64,000 bases of DNA, taken from Candidatus Nomurabacteria bacterium (GTDB lineage Bacteria; Patescibacteriota; Minisyncoccia; Phycocordibacterales; UBA918). Positions within the stretch are counted from its first letter, which is position 1; each line of letters begins with the position of its first letter. Position numbers and translations under genes: made by a program. Below, piece after piece: positions 1,988 through 62,292 of this stretch. Under the pieces are notes generated by a model. That model saw nothing but the letters and a program-made list of their open reading frames with translations, was not told where the DNA came from and did no database searches. Location of the stretch: contig CP060229.1 in the NCBI GenBank assembly GCA_023898585.1, positions 462,763 to 526,762 on the forward strand. Reading direction: 5' to 3'.

Positions 1988-3427
1988 ATGAACCAAAAGC
2001 GGTCTCAATACATCACAACTACGTTGCCCTACGTGAACGCGTCTCCTCACATGGGCCACGCACTTGAGTTTGTGCAAGCCGACACCTTGGCGCGTTATCG
2101 ACGTTTGTTGGGGGAAGAAGTTTTTTTGAATATGGGAGTTGATGAACATGGTCAAAAGGTGTCAAAAAAAGCGGATGAAGCTGGTGTTGATAGGCAAGAG
2201 TATGTCGACAAATACGCTACTGAATTTAACAAACTAAAAGAAGCTCTCGATCTTTCTTACGATAACTTTATCCGCACTTCGAGTGATCCTCATAAGGTGG
2301 CAGCGCAAGAGATGTGGCGTCGGTGCGAGGCGACCGGTGATATCTACAAAAAGAAATACAAAGGCCTTTACTGTGTTGGTTGCGAAGCCTTCAAGGTAGA
2401 CTCTGATCTCATTGATGGTAAGTGCCCCGACCATCAGGTAGAGCCGGAAGAAATTGAGGAGGAAAATTATTTTTTCAAACTTTCGAACTATCAGGATTAC
2501 TTAATTGAGTATCTATCTAAGGAAGAATCAGTTCTGCCGGACTGGCGTCGCGAAGAAGCGCTAAAATTTGTCCAAAGTGGCCTAGATGACCTTAGTATTT
2601 CCAGAGAAAAGTCACGCATGGACTGGGGAATTGACGTGCCGGGAGATGATGGCCATGTGATGTATGTGTGGTTTGATGCGCTCACGAACTACATTTCTAC
2701 GCTGGGTTGGCCGGAAGACAAGACCGGCCAGTTTGAACGGTTTTGGGTAAAAGGAAACACCCTGCAATTGGCCGGTAAAGATCAAGTAAGATTCCAGTCT
2801 ATTATCTGGCAGGCAATGCTCAAAAGTGCGGGAATAAAAGCGACCGACACGGTCTTTTATCATGGCTTTATAAATAGTGGTGGACATAAGATGAGTAAGT
2901 CGCTTGGAAATACAATTAACCCGTATGATCTCGTTGCACGCTATGGTACCGACGCGACACGCTATATCATGCTTCGACATGTGCATCCAACCGATGATTC
3001 TGATCTGACTTGGGAAAAAATGGATGAGTACTATACTGCCAATCTTGTGAACGGTCTTGGTAACTTGACTGCTAGAATTATGAAGATGGCGGAGACTCAT
3101 CTTGATGGTCCAATTGAACGGCCGGAGGTATCCGGTTTTGATTCCGTCTACACTGATGCTCTTGATCGTTATGATTTTCAGAGAGCTTGTGATTTTGTCT
3201 GGGAGAAGGTGGGGGAGATGGACGAAAAAATCACTGAGACCGAGCCATTTAAACTGGTCAAGACAGATAGAGAGAGTGCGATAAAAATAATCAAGGGGTT
3301 GGTCCATGATCTGTATATAGTCGGTCGAATGCTAAATCCGCTAATGCCGGAGACAAACAAGATCATCAAACAAGCAGTATTAGACAACAAAAAGCCGGAT
3401 AATTTGTTTAGTCGTCTAGAGTCATAA
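1988..3427 (+). CDS. metG: methionyl-tRNA synthetase
   Basis: HMGH (HIGH-type) motif in PYVNASPHMGHALE, KMSKS motif, zinc knuckle CVGCEAF..CPDH. Confidence 0.9.
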   Translation: MNQKRSQYITTTLPYVNASPHMGHALEFVQADTLARYRRLLGEEVFLNMGVDEHGQKVSKKADEAGVDRQEYVDKYATEFNKLKEALDLSYDNFIRTSSDPHKVAAQEMWRRCEATGDIYKKKYKGLYCVGCEAFKVDSDLIDGKCPDHQVEPEEIEEENYFFKLSNYQDYLIEYLSKEESVLPDWRREEALKFVQSGLDDLSISREKSRMDWGIDVPGDDGHVMYVWFDALTNYISTLGWPEDKTGQFERFWVKGNTLQLAGKDQVRFQSIIWQAMLKSAGIKATDTVFYHGFINSGGHKMSKSLGNTINPYDLVARYGTDATRYIMLRHVHPTDDSDLTWEKMDEYYTANLVNGLGNLTARIMKMAETHLDGPIERPEVSGFDSVYTDALDRYDFQRACDFVWEKVGEMDEKITETEPFKLVKTDRESAIKIIKGLVHDLYIVGRMLNPLMPETNKIIKQAVLDNKKPDNLFSRLES

Positions 3428-3437
3428 AATCTAATCT

Positions 3438-3971
3438 ATGAAAAAACTCCTCATCTTGCCGGGCAATAGTAAACTAAACGAGATCTGGGGTGAGGCGTGC
3501 GCGAGATTTTTTCATAAGGATTTTGCTTACATTTATCTGATGCGTTATGAGCACTGGATAACCGAGGGGCCGATCAATATTCCGCTGGAGATCGAGAAAA
3601 TCGCTAATACGGTAAAAGACGGTGAAGCAGATGATGAGTGGTACGTCTGTGCCAAGTCAATTGGCTCGATAGTCACACTCTTAGCGACAAAGGAAAAAGC
3701 GATTGAGCCTAAAAAATGCATATTCTTCGGCATGCCACTAGATATCGCGGATGAGGAAGCTTTTAATGATGACTGGTCTCCTTTGTCTGATTTTTCTGTA
3801 CCGATGTTGGTTTTTCATAATGACGAAGATCCGGTTGCTTCCAACGAGTTTACCAAAACCAAACTCGAAGAGATGGGTCAGAACGTGAAGTTTATACAAT
3901 TGTCTGGAACGGATCATACCTACCGAGATTTTTCTTCCTATCAAATGGAGATAGATAAATTCCTTAAGTGA
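3438..3971 (+). CDS. alpha/beta-fold serine hydrolase, RBBP9/YdeN-like
   Basis: AKSIG nucleophile elbow, later Asp and GTDHTY His; 177 aa. Confidence 0.4.
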   Translation: MKKLLILPGNSKLNEIWGEACARFFHKDFAYIYLMRYEHWITEGPINIPLEIEKIANTVKDGEADDEWYVCAKSIGSIVTLLATKEKAIEPKKCIFFGMPLDIADEEAFNDDWSPLSDFSVPMLVFHNDEDPVASNEFTKTKLEEMGQNVKFIQLSGTDHTYRDFSSYQMEIDKFLK

Positions 3972-3972
3972 T

Positions 3973-4263
3973 ATGGAGCAGTTAACAGAAATACAGGAAC
4001 GAAACAAACGAGTCGAGCTGGATAAAGCCTGGGAGACGAGTATAGCTAGGCGGGGTATTATCGCTAGTCTTACGTATTTAGTGGCAGTCATATTCATGTA
4101 TCGGATCGGTGTGTCAGATGCCTATCTCAATGCTCTAGTGCCAACCGGTGGCTATTTGCTCTCAACTCTCTCGCTCCGAGTGGTTAAAAGACGGTGGATC
4201 AAAAATCGGATTGTCAAGGACCCTGTCGACAGAGTAAAGCGCGACCAAAGACCTTTCGATTAA
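3973..4263 (+). CDS. small hypothetical membrane protein
   Basis: ORF with a central hydrophobic helix; its C-terminal residues are encoded by the palindrome. Confidence 0.3.
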   Translation: MEQLTEIQERNKRVELDKAWETSIARRGIIASLTYLVAVIFMYRIGVSDAYLNALVPTGGYLLSTLSLRVVKRRWIKNRIVKDPVDRVKRDQRPFD

Positions 4264-4287
4264 TCGAAAGGTCTTTGGTCGCGCTTG
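4236..4287. repeat. perfect 52-bp palindrome AAGCGCGACCAAAGACCTTTCGAT|TAATCGAAAGGTCTTTGGTCGCGCTT between convergent genes; acts as a bidirectional terminator or operator
   Basis: Read directly from the sequence; core CCTTTCGATTAATCGAAAGG recurs at 4707-4726. Confidence 0.8.
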
Positions 4288-4688
4288 AAAGCTTCAGACC
4301 GATGAGTTTGACCGTAGTGGGGCAAAACCCCTCCCAAGTGTAATATTGAATCAATGGTGTCAATTAGCTCAAGAAACTTATTTTTGTCTCTGGCTAGAAC
4401 TTTTAACAATCGATCATAAGCACTGCTATCAAGCCGTGATTTGAAACCCTTTGCGGTTGAAGTGCTGATTTTTAGCGTTCCTGATACTTTGTAAATTGAC
4501 TGACCTTGGTTAAGCATGATGATGGCGGCTAAACGTTTAGCTAGAAGGATCTTTTCTTCAGTGCCCAAAAAATCCTCCAAAAACAAAGAAGATTGTTTTG
4601 CGTTCAAACTACCTAGGGTGGAGTTGAGCTGGTTGAATAGTTCATTTAAAGTGGTCTTGCTTAGTTTGTGTCGCGATACATGAACCAT
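4260..4688 (-). CDS. TrpR-like YerC/YecD family helix-turn-helix protein
   Basis: LFLEDFLGTEEKILLAKRLAAIIMLNQGQSIYKVSGTLKISTSTAKGFKSRL matches the YerC pattern FFDDL..E...LAQRL.VA.ML..G.SY..I....G.STATISRV.RSL. Internal start MVHVSRHK chosen because the longer ORF starts inside the upstream palindrome. Confidence 0.65.
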   Translation of the reverse strand: MVHVSRHKLSKTTLNELFNQLNSTLGSLNAKQSSLFLEDFLGTEEKILLAKRLAAIIMLNQGQSIYKVSGTLKISTSTAKGFKSRLDSSAYDRLLKVLARDKNKFLELIDTIDSILHLGGVLPHYGQTHRSEAFKRDQRPFD

Positions 4689-4700
4689 ACAAACAATCGT

Positions 4701-4732
4701 ACCAAACCTTTCGATTAATCGAAAGGTTTTAT
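4701..4732. promoter_or_regulatory. second copy of palindrome core (AAACCTTTCGATTAATCGAAAGGTTT) immediately upstream of the YerC-like gene; candidate operator
   Basis: Sequence identity of the 20-bp core with the 4236-4287 palindrome. Confidence 0.5.
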
Positions 4733-4750
4733 TGTGGTAAGATAACGACA

Positions 4751-5725: not shown

Positions 5726-7735
5726 ATGTATAGAAAGATTTTAGTGTTGTCGTTTCTAGTGTTTGCGTTGTCCGGGGTTAACTCAGTGTACGCAGTCAGT
5801 AGTCAAGGCAATGATCTCGGAGAGCTCAAGGCCTGTTACTACAAAAGCGCTACTGACTTTTGTGCCAAAGCTGATTTTAATGGTGACGGTACCGTAAATG
5901 CCGGTGATCTCGGTTTGTTAAAATTAGCAACCGGCTATGACACTAACAGTGACGGCATTGTAGACCTGAATCCAAGTGGAGACGAAGTAGTATTCATTAA
6001 AAAAGAATGTGTCTTGGACGGAAAGACTTGTGATCTGAAGTGGGATTTAAATAGCGATGGTTCGGTTACAAACACTGATGCTGTGATGCTGTCTCGTATG
6101 ATACTAGGTCTTAGTCCTTATGAAGGGAAGAGTCTCACCCGGTTCGACCTCAATGGTGATGGCGTTATCGACGTTAATTCACCATATGTCAAAGTTAAAT
6201 CACCAAACGGTGGGGAAGAATTCAAATACGGTGAAGCCACCAAAATCACCTGGGATTCAGTAGGTGTTGACAAGGTGAGTATCGGTTGGTCGGTAGGCCA
6301 AGGATCACTCAATTGGATTGCTACAAATATTCCCAATTCTGGTTCATACGACTGGGAAGTCATTCCGGGCAATATGCTCGATGGACAGAGCAAGGAAGTC
6401 AAGATTCAAATTATTGGTTACATGACTGGTACTGGATCAAAGACCGATGATTCAGATGGTTACTTTACGGTCAAGAAGGCGAATGAATCTGTTGAATCGA
6501 CGACAAATCTTGAGTTACGTGTAGATCCCAATAAGGTTTTAAGTGGAGGGATGTTAAAAATACGTTGGAATAATACTAGCGCAGACTATTATATGCTAGG
6601 AGTAGGCAATTGTGATTCCGGAGAGTATACAGGCGGTAAGGCACGACCGAATTTGTGTACAGAATCAGAGAGAATACCTGGTGATGGTAAAGATGTAATG
6701 ATGATCGAAGACATTATTTTCTACAACACGTCAAATAAAACCGGTACAGTTCAACTCAAATTAGTATCTTACAAAGATGATCAAAAAGTACAAACAGACA
6801 GTGTCGATGTCACCATTGTTCCTGACAACGAGGATTCGACGGAACCAATAAAAGTGATTTTACCAAATGCGGGTGGAGTATATGAAATAGGAGATAAGGT
6901 AAAGATTAGATGGAAGGGAAAAATGCAAGCTATTCGCATTTTTGAAGTGGACTCAAGGGGCGAATTTATAGTTGATGGTTACAGTAAGAATATCGTTGAA
7001 CATTACAACATCGTTGATGATTCCGGTGTGTATTATTGGGTGATTGATGAAGATATTCCAGCCGGTTCGTATAAAATTCAAGTTGAGGGTTGTTGTGGCG
7101 AGATTGGAGGTTTTGATGACAGTGATCGTCCAATCAATATCGTCGAAAATGCTCACGAGGTTAATGACGGCTTACCAGCAGGAATAAAGGCAGATTCTGA
7201 CATTGTGAAATATTGTGATGTCAAAGATAGTATTTCAGACGCCTGTGCTGGTGTCGATTTTGACGGAGATGGTCAATTTTCAAACAAAGATTTACGGATG
7301 TTTAATGATGTTGCGAGATATGACACCAACGGCGACGGTGTGGTAGACCTTAATCCCAAAGGAGACGAAGTAACATTCATTAAAAAAGAATGTGTCTTAG
7401 GAGGAAAGACTTGTGATCTGAAATGGGATTTAAATGGCGACGGCAAAGTGACTAATTCTGACGCTGTCCTACTTTCTCGTATGATGATGGGTCTTAGTCC
7501 TTATGAAGGGAAAGGTCTGAAAAGATTTGACTTGAATGGAGACGGGGTGGTAGACCACTTTGGTAAAACCGAGGTCCAGGAAGAGAGAGGCAATCCCATT
7601 CCATCGAAGTATCAAGATTATGGTAAAACCACTGATCAAGCGGAATTGCAAAGGCAGATTCAAGAACTACTCCAACTGATTATTCAGTTGTTGAGCAAGA
7701 AGATTGTCATGATAACAAGCTCGCCCCAGGTGTAA
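5726..7735 (+). CDS. secreted protein with paired dockerin-like Ca-binding repeats at both N- and C-terminal ends and a beta-rich middle
   Basis: Signal peptide MYRKILVLSFLVFALSGVNSVYA; DxNxDGxVxxxD repeats (DFNGDGTVNAGDLGLL, DLNSDGSVTNTDAVMLSRMILG, DLNGDGVIDVN) duplicated near the C-terminus. Confidence 0.5.
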   Translation: MYRKILVLSFLVFALSGVNSVYAVSSQGNDLGELKACYYKSATDFCAKADFNGDGTVNAGDLGLLKLATGYDTNSDGIVDLNPSGDEVVFIKKECVLDGKTCDLKWDLNSDGSVTNTDAVMLSRMILGLSPYEGKSLTRFDLNGDGVIDVNSPYVKVKSPNGGEEFKYGEATKITWDSVGVDKVSIGWSVGQGSLNWIATNIPNSGSYDWEVIPGNMLDGQSKEVKIQIIGYMTGTGSKTDDSDGYFTVKKANESVESTTNLELRVDPNKVLSGGMLKIRWNNTSADYYMLGVGNCDSGEYTGGKARPNLCTESERIPGDGKDVMMIEDIIFYNTSNKTGTVQLKLVSYKDDQKVQTDSVDVTIVPDNEDSTEPIKVILPNAGGVYEIGDKVKIRWKGKMQAIRIFEVDSRGEFIVDGYSKNIVEHYNIVDDSGVYYWVIDEDIPAGSYKIQVEGCCGEIGGFDDSDRPINIVENAHEVNDGLPAGIKADSDIVKYCDVKDSISDACAGVDFDGDGQFSNKDLRMFNDVARYDTNGDGVVDLNPKGDEVTFIKKECVLGGKTCDLKWDLNGDGKVTNSDAVLLSRMMMGLSPYEGKGLKRFDLNGDGVVDHFGKTEVQEERGNPIPSKYQDYGKTTDQAELQRQIQELLQLIIQLLSKKIVMITSSPQV

Positions 7736-10194: not shown

Positions 10195-10200
10195 AAGTAA

Positions 10201-10233
10201 AAGAGCCGGGCACCGAAGGTGCCCGGCTCTTTA
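10201..10233. terminator. bidirectional hairpin AAAGAGCCGGGCACC-GAAG-GTGCCCGGCTCTTT between rpsR and efp
   Basis: Perfect inverted repeat flanked by A/T runs. Confidence 0.7.
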
Positions 10234-10312
10234 ACTTTACCTCTCCCCAAGCCTTAGACTCAATCAATAAAACCTTGCGTATCACGCTCGGACACATTTA
10301 GGTAATCACTTG

Positions 10313-12843: not shown

Positions 12844-12863
12844 TTCGTGGTACTTTGCGGTTT

Positions 12864-12895
12864 AAAAGAAGCCGGCCTTTAGGCCGGCTTCTTTT
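12864..12895. terminator. bidirectional hairpin AAAAGAAGCCGGCC-TTTA-GGCCGGCTTCTTTT
   Basis: Perfect inverted repeat between convergent genes. Confidence 0.75.
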
Positions 12896-12912
12896 AAACT
12901 TTTTCCCGCACT

Positions 12913-45665: not shown

Positions 45666-46457
45666 ATGATAGTAGAAGGAAGCGTAATCGCCGAAGACAT
45701 TTTAAAGTCGGTTGCGAAGGTTGTGGCCGAACGGTCATCGGTAATTCGTCTGTCTGCTATTACTTGTGCGCCCAATTTTGAGACTAGGAAATATCTTGAG
45801 AGGAAGAAGAAAAAAGCAATCTCGGTCGGCATTGCACTGAATGTGGTGGAGTTACCGGTTGATGCGACGACAGACGATGTGGTGTCAAGTGTCTTAGAAG
45901 TGGCGAAGACGGTTGATGGGATAGTGGTACAGTTGCCATTACCGACGCAGATTGATCGTGAAGCGGTGTTGACGGCAGTGCCGGTTGGAAAGGATCCCGA
46001 TGGTTTTAAGTACGGCAAAGACAATTCTGCCTGTCTACCACCGGTCGTCGGAGCTATAGACGAAATCAGCCACAGGCATAATGTTTCTTGGCAGGGGAAA
46101 CGGGTGGTTGTTCTTGGGCAAGGGAGATTGGTCGGAGCTCCGGTTGCCGAATATGCTCGTCGCCTTGGTGTGCTTGTCACTATTCTGAACAGAGATAGTT
46201 TTGATGAGAATGTCTTACAATCGGCAGATATTATTGTGAGTGGGGTGGGTCAACCTCATTTTATTAAGCCGGCCATGGTAAAAGAAGGGGTGGTAATTTT
46301 TGACGCTGGCACGTCTGAGGAAAAGGGGCTGTTGGCCGGTGATGCGGATCCGGGACTGGGGTCAAAAGCGAAGCTTTTGACCCCAGTCCCCGGAGGCATC
46401 GGACCTATCACCATCGCTTATTTATTGAAGAACCTGGTACGGTTGGCTAGTCAATAG
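45666..46457 (+). CDS. folD: bifunctional methylenetetrahydrofolate dehydrogenase/cyclohydrolase
   Basis: VVLGQGRLVGAPV, DIIVSGVGQPHFIKP, PVPGGIGPITIAYLLKN. Confidence 0.85.
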   Translation: MIVEGSVIAEDILKSVAKVVAERSSVIRLSAITCAPNFETRKYLERKKKKAISVGIALNVVELPVDATTDDVVSSVLEVAKTVDGIVVQLPLPTQIDREAVLTAVPVGKDPDGFKYGKDNSACLPPVVGAIDEISHRHNVSWQGKRVVVLGQGRLVGAPVAEYARRLGVLVTILNRDSFDENVLQSADIIVSGVGQPHFIKPAMVKEGVVIFDAGTSEEKGLLAGDADPGLGSKAKLLTPVPGGIGPITIAYLLKNLVRLASQ

Positions 46458-54569: not shown

Positions 54570-54752
54570 TTGACAATTCTCCAAAGTATGCTAGCTTATC
54601 AGTGTCTTCACGACGCGCGACAGATGTGGTGTAATCTTTTTTAAAGAAATTGCCACTTCTGCCTCGCGTACGCGAGGCAGAACCTGCTGACACAGCGTCA
54701 GCAGAACCTGTCGGCGTCGCCGACTTACGCTTTATCCTAGGAGGGATAAGTG

Positions 54753-55169: not shown

Positions 55170-55191
55170 CCTGACGTCCGGTGCATTATCG

Positions 55192-55228
55192 CCGAGCATC
55201 CTTTTTCCTCCGGAAAAAGGATGCTCGG
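55192..55228 (+). terminator. hairpin CCGAGCAUCCUUUUUCC-UCC-GGAAAAAGGAUGCUCGG
   Basis: Perfect 17-bp stem. Confidence 0.7.
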
Positions 55229-55462
55229 CACCCACCACCAATCTATATTTGTAATTGTAAAATTTTACACCACAGATACTAGAGAGGTGGTTTTTTAATA
55301 TTAAAAAATCCCACAAATTAAGACTTTTTCACATAAAACACTTGCTTTTTTGTCAAAAGTATGATATACATTGCTCCAAATATAAGGACTTGACATACAT
55401 TGAGGTACGTTGTGTCCAAGTTATTTGACAACAGAATATAAATTGAAAAGGAGAAACAAAGA

Positions 55463-62224: not shown

Positions 62225-62270
62225 AACAAACAAAGAAAACCATCGGCATGCCGATGGTTTTCTTTGTTTG
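62225..62270. terminator. bidirectional hairpin AAACAAAGAAAACCAUCGGCAUGCCGAUGGUUUUCUUUGUUU
   Basis: Perfect 19-bp stem between the 16S 3' flank and the reverse-strand gene. Confidence 0.75.
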
Positions 62271-62292
62271 TACGCTCGACTGAATCACTTTT

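Follow-up and report, generated by a model that had tools for sequence, protein, structure and literature searches.

A TrpR-fold protein gene of Candidate Phyla Radiation bacteria is bracketed by two copies of a lineage-specific palindrome, its putative operator

Introduction

The tryptophan repressor TrpR autoregulates trpR, the gene that encodes it. Within the same family, YerC of Bacillus subtilis is HisR, a histidine-dependent repressor that acts at 20-bp palindromic operators with lineage-specific consensus sequences (PMC9413887). TrpR and HisR both use 20-bp palindromes, with the consensus GTACTAGTTAACTAGTAC for the trp operator (trpO) of Escherichia coli and cacTTTAnnnnnnTAAAgtg for HisR; the HisR sites are linked to genes of histidine biosynthesis and transport, and about half of the hisR genes are preceded by a site of their own, often with autoregulation (PMC9413887). 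Here we describe a gene for a helix-turn-helix (HTH) protein that lies between two copies of one palindrome in a 64,000-nt stretch of a Candidatus Nomurabacteria genome (GCA_023898585.1, contig CP060229.1, positions 462,763 to 526,762), called the window below and numbered from its first nucleotide. The same bracket recurs in homologous loci of the Candidate Phyla Radiation (CPR), with a different palindrome in different lineages, and specific residues of the protein track specific bases of the palindrome, so that the two copies are probably the operators of the protein encoded between them. A first-pass annotation of the window had described the function of the YerC/YecD family as essentially unknown, a statement that the work on HisR has made outdated.

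The window protein is like TrpR in its small, all-helical TrpR-like HTH fold, and its putative operators are, like those of TrpR, dyads of about 20 bp, often with a central TTAA. It differs from TrpR in a sub-threshold Pfam similarity, in 40 additional conserved residues at the C-terminus and in a conserved N-terminal arm. The system as a whole differs in the conserved half-site positions (TnCnnTn), in a second site that lies on the stop codon, in the embedding of the operators in hairpins and in that no trp genes are found nearby. With HisR the window system shares membership of the TrpR family and 20-bp palindromes of lineage-specific consensus, and the nearest solved structures (3G1C, 3KOR and 3FRW) belong to the HisR group. 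HisR proteins, however, have fewer than 100 residues, recognise cacTTTAnnnnnnTAAAgtg and are encoded beside his or transporter genes, whereas members of the window family have 130-150 aa, the motif TnCnnTn in one half-site and nAnnGnA in the other, metG and tatD as neighbours and a site that is duplicated at the 3' end. The searchable literature yielded no account of this family or of its architecture. The system would be of a known kind, the TrpR-family repressors with their operators; what sets it apart is that the two putative operators bracket their own gene and lie within hairpins, and that the recognition code is unusually legible.

Results

The 20-mer CCTTTCGATTAATCGAAAGG occurs at 4252-4271 and at 4707-4726, and no third match was found in the 64 kb with up to three mismatches allowed. 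The chance expectation for such a pair is 0.01, and none of 100 shuffles of the sequence gave two matches. Each copy is the core of a longer palindrome, and the two stand at the ends of the HTH gene.

4260-4688, minus strand: gene for a TrpR-fold HTH protein of 142 aa, from a CPR family remotely related to YerC/HisR
4237-4286: 3' palindrome, perfect, 50 bp, 25-nt arms, zero loop, around the family core at 4252-4271
4704-4729: 5' palindrome, perfect, 26 bp, 13-nt arms, zero loop, around the family core at 4707-4726
4700-4739: extended quasi-palindrome around the 5' copy, in which TACCA (4700-4704) is complementary to TGGTA (4735-4739), 6 nt being bulged out on one side

Most of this geometry had been recognised in the first-pass annotation. 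It had placed the 20-bp core at two points of the stretch, the second of them within a 26-bp palindrome just upstream of the likely start of the HTH gene, and on both counts we agree. Its perfect 52-bp inverted repeat at 4236-4287 shrinks to 50 bp, because the outermost positions (4236 and 4287) are A and G and do not pair. The first copy had been assigned to the 3' ends of the HTH gene and of a convergent open reading frame (ORF) at 3973-4263, and it does cover the stop codons of both, the central TTAA supplying a TAA on either strand where the two genes overlap by 4 nt. That both ORFs end in the peptide RDQRPFD, as also noted then, is correct and carries no independent weight, since a perfect palindrome is read here in the same phase on both strands. 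The ORF of the HTH gene spans 4751 to 4260 on the minus strand. Its start is likely the ATG at 4688 (MVHVS...), judging by an N-terminus that is conserved in all homologues, and this gives 142 aa in place of the 143 aa first proposed. The centre of the 5' palindrome then lies 28 nt upstream of this ATG and 34 nt upstream of the ATG (4751) of the divergent tatD gene. The extension of the 5' palindrome, bulged in the window, is perfect in relatives (TACCAAACC...GGTTTGGTA).

The match of the window protein to the Pfam family PF01371 (Trp_repressor) remains below the gathering score (19.7 vs 27 bits, E 9e-4), several homologues having precomputed matches to this family, and the cut-off of the NCBIfam model TIGR02531 (YerC/YecD) is not reached (14.5 vs 42.2 bits, E 0.037). 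A profile of 34 homologues matches 3G1C, 3FRW and 3KOR, structures of the TrpR-like/YerC group, with E-values of 3.5e-5 to 5e-4. The AlphaFold (AF2) model of the window protein consists of eight helices, with a predicted local distance difference test score (pLDDT) of 82. Its top Foldseek matches were 3KOR, 3G1C and 3FRW together with the TrpR-operator complexes 1TRR and 1TRO, at a probability of 0.95-1.0, a target template-modelling (TM) score of 0.6-0.7 and E-values of only 0.15-1.5. Profile and model agree on a TrpR-like all-helical fold with the HTH in the equivalent position and, as judged from these two comparisons, the protein has a TrpR-like fold yet belongs to a distinct family. The label of a TrpR/YerC-like regulator given at first pass therefore holds for the fold, with YerC/YecD only a remote relative. 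The family comprises 832 representatives of 50%-identity clusters at E <= 1e-10 and is mostly CPR. Its members share the N-terminal arm M-[VTPA]-[NHR]-h-[SN]-[KR], which is conserved, and a C-terminal extension of about 40 residues in which the motif DSILHLGGxLPHY is invariant; in the window protein the arm reads MVHVS and the recognition helix ...KISTSTAK..., and the C-terminal extension carries the same DSILHLGGxLPHY motif.

A metagenome scan that used the alignment of the family's proteins gave 80 homologous loci, and the bracket recurs in about 80 loci, mostly from CPR bacteria. Wherever the flank is long enough, nearly every locus has a zero-loop palindrome centred 26-33 nt before the ATG, and nearly all have a second one on the stop codon or within about 20 nt of it. 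We listed 54 loci, including the window and a saccharibacterial locus (L009), in which each of the two palindromes is perfect and has arms of 7 nt or more, and in 44 of these the 20-mers at the two ends are identical. At least 25 different 20-mers occur across the lineages, examples being CCTTTCGGTTAACCGAAAGG, CCTTTCAGTTAACTGAAAGG, TACTCCAATCGATTGGAGTA, CCTTTCTACCGGTAGAAAGG and TACTACGATATATCGTAGTA, and within a genome the copies match. In L009 the window's own core stands on both sides of a 43%-identical orthologue. The layout recurs on a contig of the window organism that is 100% identical, and also around an orthologue of 61% identity, with no family-type palindrome elsewhere within 17.5 kb around the latter. 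Altogether, 118 family-type palindromes lie within 1.2 kb of the gene, as against 1 in 193 kb of more distant flank. The two sites are conserved, their type is specific to the lineage and they vary in concert. One might suppose that the pair arose by chance, or that two unrelated terminators happen to share a stem, given that long hairpins are common in this genome and that the same 20-mer is present in unrelated organisms (an archaeal locus described below, one Chloroflexi and one Bacteroidetes genome). This explanation is refuted by the expectation of 0.01 and by a bracket that appears in about 80 loci with lineage-specific sequences, and we accord it practically no probability.

The different 20-mers have a common half-site skeleton, TnCnnTn with nAnnGnA as its mirror image. 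In the initial set of half-sites C(-5) was invariant, T(-7) and T(-2) were nearly so and the other positions varied; a locus that was added later (L121) carries T at -5. Every type is self-complementary in its central 4 nt as well (TTAA, TCGA, TATA, CCGG). Since any hairpin would leave these four bases unpaired, their self-complementarity speaks for a dimer of two-fold symmetry that recognises duplex DNA.

If the protein reads the palindrome, its residues should change together with the bases, and they do. From 61 non-redundant pairs of protein and half-site we drew up contingency tables and parsimony counts, the latter on neighbour-joining trees built without the N-terminal arm, or without both the arm and the recognition helix. 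Asn3 is paired with G at -3 (GTT/AAC, the stroke marking the dyad centre) in 19 of 19 cases with no exception in either direction, and 6-7 independent changes of each character are counted on trees from which those residues had been left out. Ala77, in the recognition helix, goes with TCA at -6 to -4 (14/14, both directions, six changes), and Gln76 is always found with TAC at the outer triplet, -10 to -8 (10/10). A prospective check on six further family members gave the same result for residue 3: all three proteins with Asn3 had G at -3 (TATTCCGGTTAACCGGAATA, TAGTACGGTTAACCGTACTA and CCTTTTAGTCGACTAAAAGG), and the proteins with Gln3 and Arg3 carried ATT/AAT. The covariation of residues with bases leads us to take the palindrome as the cognate site of the encoded protein, for which it provides strong, though indirect, evidence.

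We consider it probable, at about 0.7, that the palindromes are cognate operators of a dimeric TrpR-fold HTH repressor encoded between them, in a self-bracketing and autoregulated arrangement. A repressor that controls its own gene, with an operator-like site at either end, was one of the two proposals made at first pass, and it is strongly supported by the bracket in about 80 loci, the matched lineage-specific types and the covariation of residues and bases; we infer binding and repression, as well as the position of the promoter and the role of the 3' site. Each monomer would read one 10-bp half-site, with the recognition helix (about residues 75-80) on the outer half-site, including the near-invariant T(-7) and C(-5), and the N-terminal arm reaching the central base pairs. 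Such a division would be like that of lambda-type repressors, in which a helix contacts the outer half-site and a flexible N-terminal arm the centre (compare the covariation of residue 3 with ±3); their fold family differs from that of the window protein. The 5' site would lie just downstream of the promoter, some 28 nt from the ATG, and its occupancy would turn off transcription of the gene (negative autoregulation). In the window an occupied 5' site may also affect tatD. The 3' site lies on the stop codon and would cap a longer hairpin, the putative bidirectional terminator of the two convergent genes, and when occupied it would probably also act as a roadblock or insulator against transcription that enters the antisense gene from the metG side. 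Alternatively, the 3' site may be the second anchor of a repression loop.

The setting of the HTH gene is defined by the following features of the window.

1988-3427, plus strand: metG, a conserved upstream member of the metG...tatD row
3438-3971, plus strand: alpha/beta-hydrolase gene, a conserved upstream member of the same row
3973-4263, plus strand: gene for a small membrane protein of 96 aa, convergent with the HTH gene and stopping at the central TAA
4751-5602, plus strand: tatD (TatD-family hydrolase), the divergent, conserved neighbour, separated from the HTH gene by a 62-bp spacer
4739-4744, minus strand: TATCTT, a tentative -10-like hexamer for the HTH gene

In 48-49 of the 80 loci metG is followed by the alpha/beta-hydrolase and small membrane-protein genes, then by the HTH gene, which faces them, and then by tatD in the direction of metG. 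The HTH gene sits antisense inside this otherwise co-directional row, and the conserved synteny argues that it is inherited vertically and is not mobile. In Saccharibacteria the neighbours are recJ and rnhA, with the order recJ-yerC-rnhA at L101. The second proposal made at first pass, a small palindromic mobile unit, is unsupported for the cassette in view of the synteny and of the concentration of the palindromes near the gene (118 vs 1 in 193 kb), and neither a homologue nor a copy of the core was found in viral contigs. An insertion sequence or miniature inverted-repeat transposable element is rejected on the evidence of synteny and viral contigs, together with the presence of a single copy in every locus and in the window. 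The short palindrome itself, as distinct from the cassette, shows signs of sequence exchange and rare ectopic copies, to which we return below.

Several details of the surrounding genes may be added. The convergent ORF of 96 aa represents a genuine small membrane-protein gene, which is conserved in 12 loci at 51-69% identity over about 77 aa; its last 19 residues or so are unconserved and represent read-through into the palindrome. At L032:92-1365 the HTH gene, elsewhere divergent from tatD, is co-directional with a downstream tatD, the pattern that would be expected from inversion of the bracketed cassette. On its other side tatD adjoins a gene for a 669-aa secreted protein with repeated dockerin/EF-hand-like segments (5726-7735), which is also present on the 100%-identical contig L124.

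The spacer between tatD and the HTH gene is typically 55-90 bp. Within it, the distance from the palindrome to the ATG of the HTH gene is constant (26-33 nt) and that to the ATG of tatD ranges between 26 and 80 nt. A weak TAnnnT signal at -29 to -24 from the palindrome centre, with a CA-rich stretch after it, is present in a set of 40 non-redundant upstream regions; on this basis the transcript of the HTH gene might start a few nucleotides before the 5' palindrome. Where the spacer is long (L020, L036 and L088), tatD has a palindrome copy of its own. Some loci have a further copy between metG and the gene that follows it, 27 nt before the ATG of that gene, and in some a copy adjoins the convergent gene at its 3' end. 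Pairs of copies about 145-150 bp apart follow the HTH gene at L020:4441-4586, L080:4439-4580, L085:4487-4637 and L088:4439-4589, and in the segments of about 145 bp between such tandem 3' copies we found no tRNA and no conserved ORF.

Not everything that we observed is expected of two operators that serve an autoregulator, and several of the points in the remainder of this section weigh against that interpretation. A sigma-70 scan detected no promoter in the 62-bp spacer, nor is a Shine-Dalgarno sequence apparent. It is also unusual for an operator to lie 3' of the gene under its control. The spacing of the two sites ranges from 422 to 518 bp, and helical phasing gave p values of 0.2 for a period of 10.5 bp and 0.0035 for 10.0 bp, in related sequences and with several periods tried. 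Phylogenetic signal and clade markers dominated an unbiased mutual-information scan that compared protein columns with half-site positions, and the explicit contingency tables and parsimony counts given above took its place.

The extent of the symmetry is a further point. Within a locus, the sequence common to both copies ends at ±12-13, and the symmetry runs to about ±18: positions ±14-18 are complementary at 50-70%, against a background of about 30%, with copy-to-copy identity at background. Symmetry that continues about 5 bp past the shared part is unexplained by a 20-bp operator. As it is built from copy-specific sequence, it implies that the operator sits at the apex of longer hairpins, which are plausibly a stem in the 5' leader and a bidirectional terminator at the 3' end; a mutational bias that perfects and extends quasi-palindromes could in principle have the same effect. 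Folded as RNA, the 3' palindrome reaches -44/-46 kcal/mol on either strand (z about -10), and the 5' palindrome with its TACCA/TGGTA extension -18 kcal/mol (z about -5). A scan classed the 3' palindrome as terminator-like on the minus strand, where the tail is TTTACTCTGT; the plus-strand tail, TTGAAAGCTT, is poor. Rfam gave only sub-threshold matches to miRNA hairpins.

Such stability raises the question of whether the palindromes act mainly as RNA hairpins, a stabilising stem-loop at the 5' end and a bidirectional intrinsic terminator at the 3' end, kept identical by gene conversion and either ignored by the HTH protein or read by it as RNA. The strength of the stems, the terminator-like 3' copy and the copy-specific symmetry beyond the shared core would all fit, as would the other long hairpins at gene ends in the window and two features described below, namely the many ectopic copies at gene 3' ends flanked by A-runs and T-runs and the asymmetric mutations common to both copies, which indicate conversion. 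This account does not explain, however, why in the window the 5' copy is located between divergent genes, with nothing to terminate, why many 3' copies across the loci lack a T-run, or why the would-be loop is self-complementary in each of at least five different centres. Moreover, three half-site positions are conserved throughout the family regardless of stem stability, residues 3, 76 and 77 covary with specific bases, and the fold is that of a repressor type that binds duplex DNA. We regard a primary role as RNA hairpins as quite unlikely.

The window contains other long, mostly perfect hairpins or palindromes (62226-62271, 54657-54682, 10195-10237, 12860-12899, 55191-55229 and 46352-46390), one of them a perfect palindrome of 46 bp. 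They do not follow the TnCnnTn skeleton and are presumably terminators. Unrelated perfect palindromes of 44-60 bp are also found between genes in other CPR loci (L101:726-785, L024:1202-1251 and L121:1064-1107), and long perfect palindromes appear to be tolerated in CPR genomes.

The manner in which the copies vary is not entirely that expected of operators either. Both copies carry one and the same asymmetric deviation, identically oriented, in at least five lineages (L048/L053, L094, L097 and L119, plus two upstream copies in L088). Shared deviations of this kind point to copying between sites, rather than to selection by a symmetric dimer alone, and the pattern suggests short-patch sequence exchange between the flanking copies.

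Copies of the core also occur away from the gene. When 185,579 species genomes were scanned for exact matches, the window core turned up in 19 stretches, of which six represent a single locus in anaerobic methanotrophic (ANME) archaea, one is from Chloroflexi, one from Bacteroidetes and 11 from CPR bacteria. The 11 CPR stretches consist of one bracketed orthologue and ten ectopic copies, mostly at gene 3' ends with A/T-run flanks. Three ectopic copies are inside coding regions, in rsmI, mutY and prmC, and the contig with the prmC copy also has a palindrome of a different family type inside uppP. Compared with solved homologues or with 14 close homologues, the RsmI and MutY copies leave the length unchanged, which argues for in-place conversion of native codons and against insertion. 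In a comparison for co-evolution of the mutY copy with the copies that flank yerC, a 97%-identical mutY has a degraded version of its copy, and the yerC loci recovered for the species concerned all keep the core unchanged. In the Kaiserbacteria metagenome-assembled genome S40-12 (JANLIJ01), three family-type palindromes lie within 110 bp between convergent genes (L011:7254-7393). Ectopic copies that lie between convergent genes or inside coding regions, with up to three types in 110 bp, are not predicted by a simple one-gene autoregulator. Several types also coexist in RIFOXYB1_FULL_46_14 (MFMS01). No second paralogue that might account for the multi-type clusters was found in the window or in any examined locus. 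The neighbours of the ectopic copies, NUDIX (twice), HIT, KhpA, MBL-fold, GyrB, HU, RNase Y-like and peptidase S9 genes, do not point to a coherent regulon.

Some particulars of these copies deserve mention. The archaeal locus is orthologous across ANME-2/Methanosarcinales contigs (L001, L003, L006, L010, L012 and L018), with an identical 20-mer and the conserved flanks gtacttaaa-core-tgttgtga; some of its contigs are binned as Bacteroidetes or Proteobacteria, and no YerC-like gene was detected at the ANME-2 contigs that carry the core. The intragenic palindromes (L019:2609-2632 in rsmI, L008:1814-1841 in mutY, L014:1154-1193 in prmC and L014:5321-5344 in uppP) translate as NLSINRKV, TFRLIERF or TSPIDWTS. 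At L011:7254-7393 and L007:482-574, both from Kaiserbacteria S40-12, two to three types (the window type, TATTCCCATTAATGGGAATA and TATTCCATTCGAATGGAATA) lie within 60-110 bp and adjoin NUDIX genes, and there is no YerC-like gene within the 8 kb examined around these clusters.

A comparison with repetitive extragenic palindromes (REPs) and their associated tyrosine transposases (RAYTs) is suggested by these findings. The palindrome might spread by copy and paste, and the factor encoded by the flanked gene might recognise it and help to spread or homogenise the copies. As a RAYT gene is flanked by REPs, the HTH gene is flanked by cognate palindromes that differ between lineages; the two copies share asymmetric variants, window-type cores are found at ten other places in CPR genomes, mostly gene 3' ends, two or three family types may cluster (L007 and L011), and the copies inside RsmI, MutY, PrmC and UppP, in the first two without length change, resemble in-place conversion. 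The 142-aa window protein, however, shows only weak TrpR/HTH matches and an all-helical model, and no HUH/Y1 tyrosine transposase or nuclease domain was found in it. Very few copies are present, 2 in the 64 kb of the window and 1 in 193 kb of flank distant from the gene, where REPs number tens to hundreds per genome, and the gene is syntenic and missing from viral contigs. Template-switch mutagenesis at quasi-palindromes can yield conversion-like patterns and could here mimic conversion without any dedicated machinery. Taking both sides together, we hold a REP/RAYT-like process to be very unlikely.

Related possibilities, which we think unlikely though worth spelling out, are that the operator is a self-homogenising palindromic element tied to the HTH protein, REP/RAYT-like and without a transposase, or that the protein bridges the two sites to insulate the antisense gene. 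If the element were self-homogenising, its copies would exchange sequence and new ones would arise by in-place conversion at terminators and inside mutY, rsmI, prmC and uppP; the mixed-type clusters may then be fossils of earlier specificities.

Discussion

Cognate operators of a self-bracketed, autoregulated TrpR-fold repressor remain our preferred explanation of the palindromes. In some respects they also recall the parS sites of ParB, which are likewise a few perfect palindromes per genome near the gene of the binding protein, some of them inside coding regions. ParB belongs to an unrelated protein family, and parS is conserved across phyla, whereas the sites of the window family diversify rapidly. 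There is no sign of a role in segregation here, and around the locus GC skew indicated neither an origin nor a terminus.

Recognisable regulators are few in CPR bacteria, and hardly any of their regulatory sites have been defined by experiment. For each member of the 832-cluster family, a predicted cognate site can be read from the flanks of the gene itself, and the covariation suggests a recognition code in which residue 3 goes with base ±3, residue 77 with bases ±4-6 and residue 76 with the outer triplet. The family would thereby offer a natural experiment in the co-evolution of a transcription factor with its operator, and a set of predicted orthogonal repressor-operator pairs. Three aspects of the layout are unusual: a putative operator lies on the stop codon, both operators form part of longer hairpins, and the row from metG to tatD is interrupted by a gene in antisense. 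Should the 3' site prove functional, it would represent a new arrangement among the ways in which bacteria insulate or autoregulate a gene.

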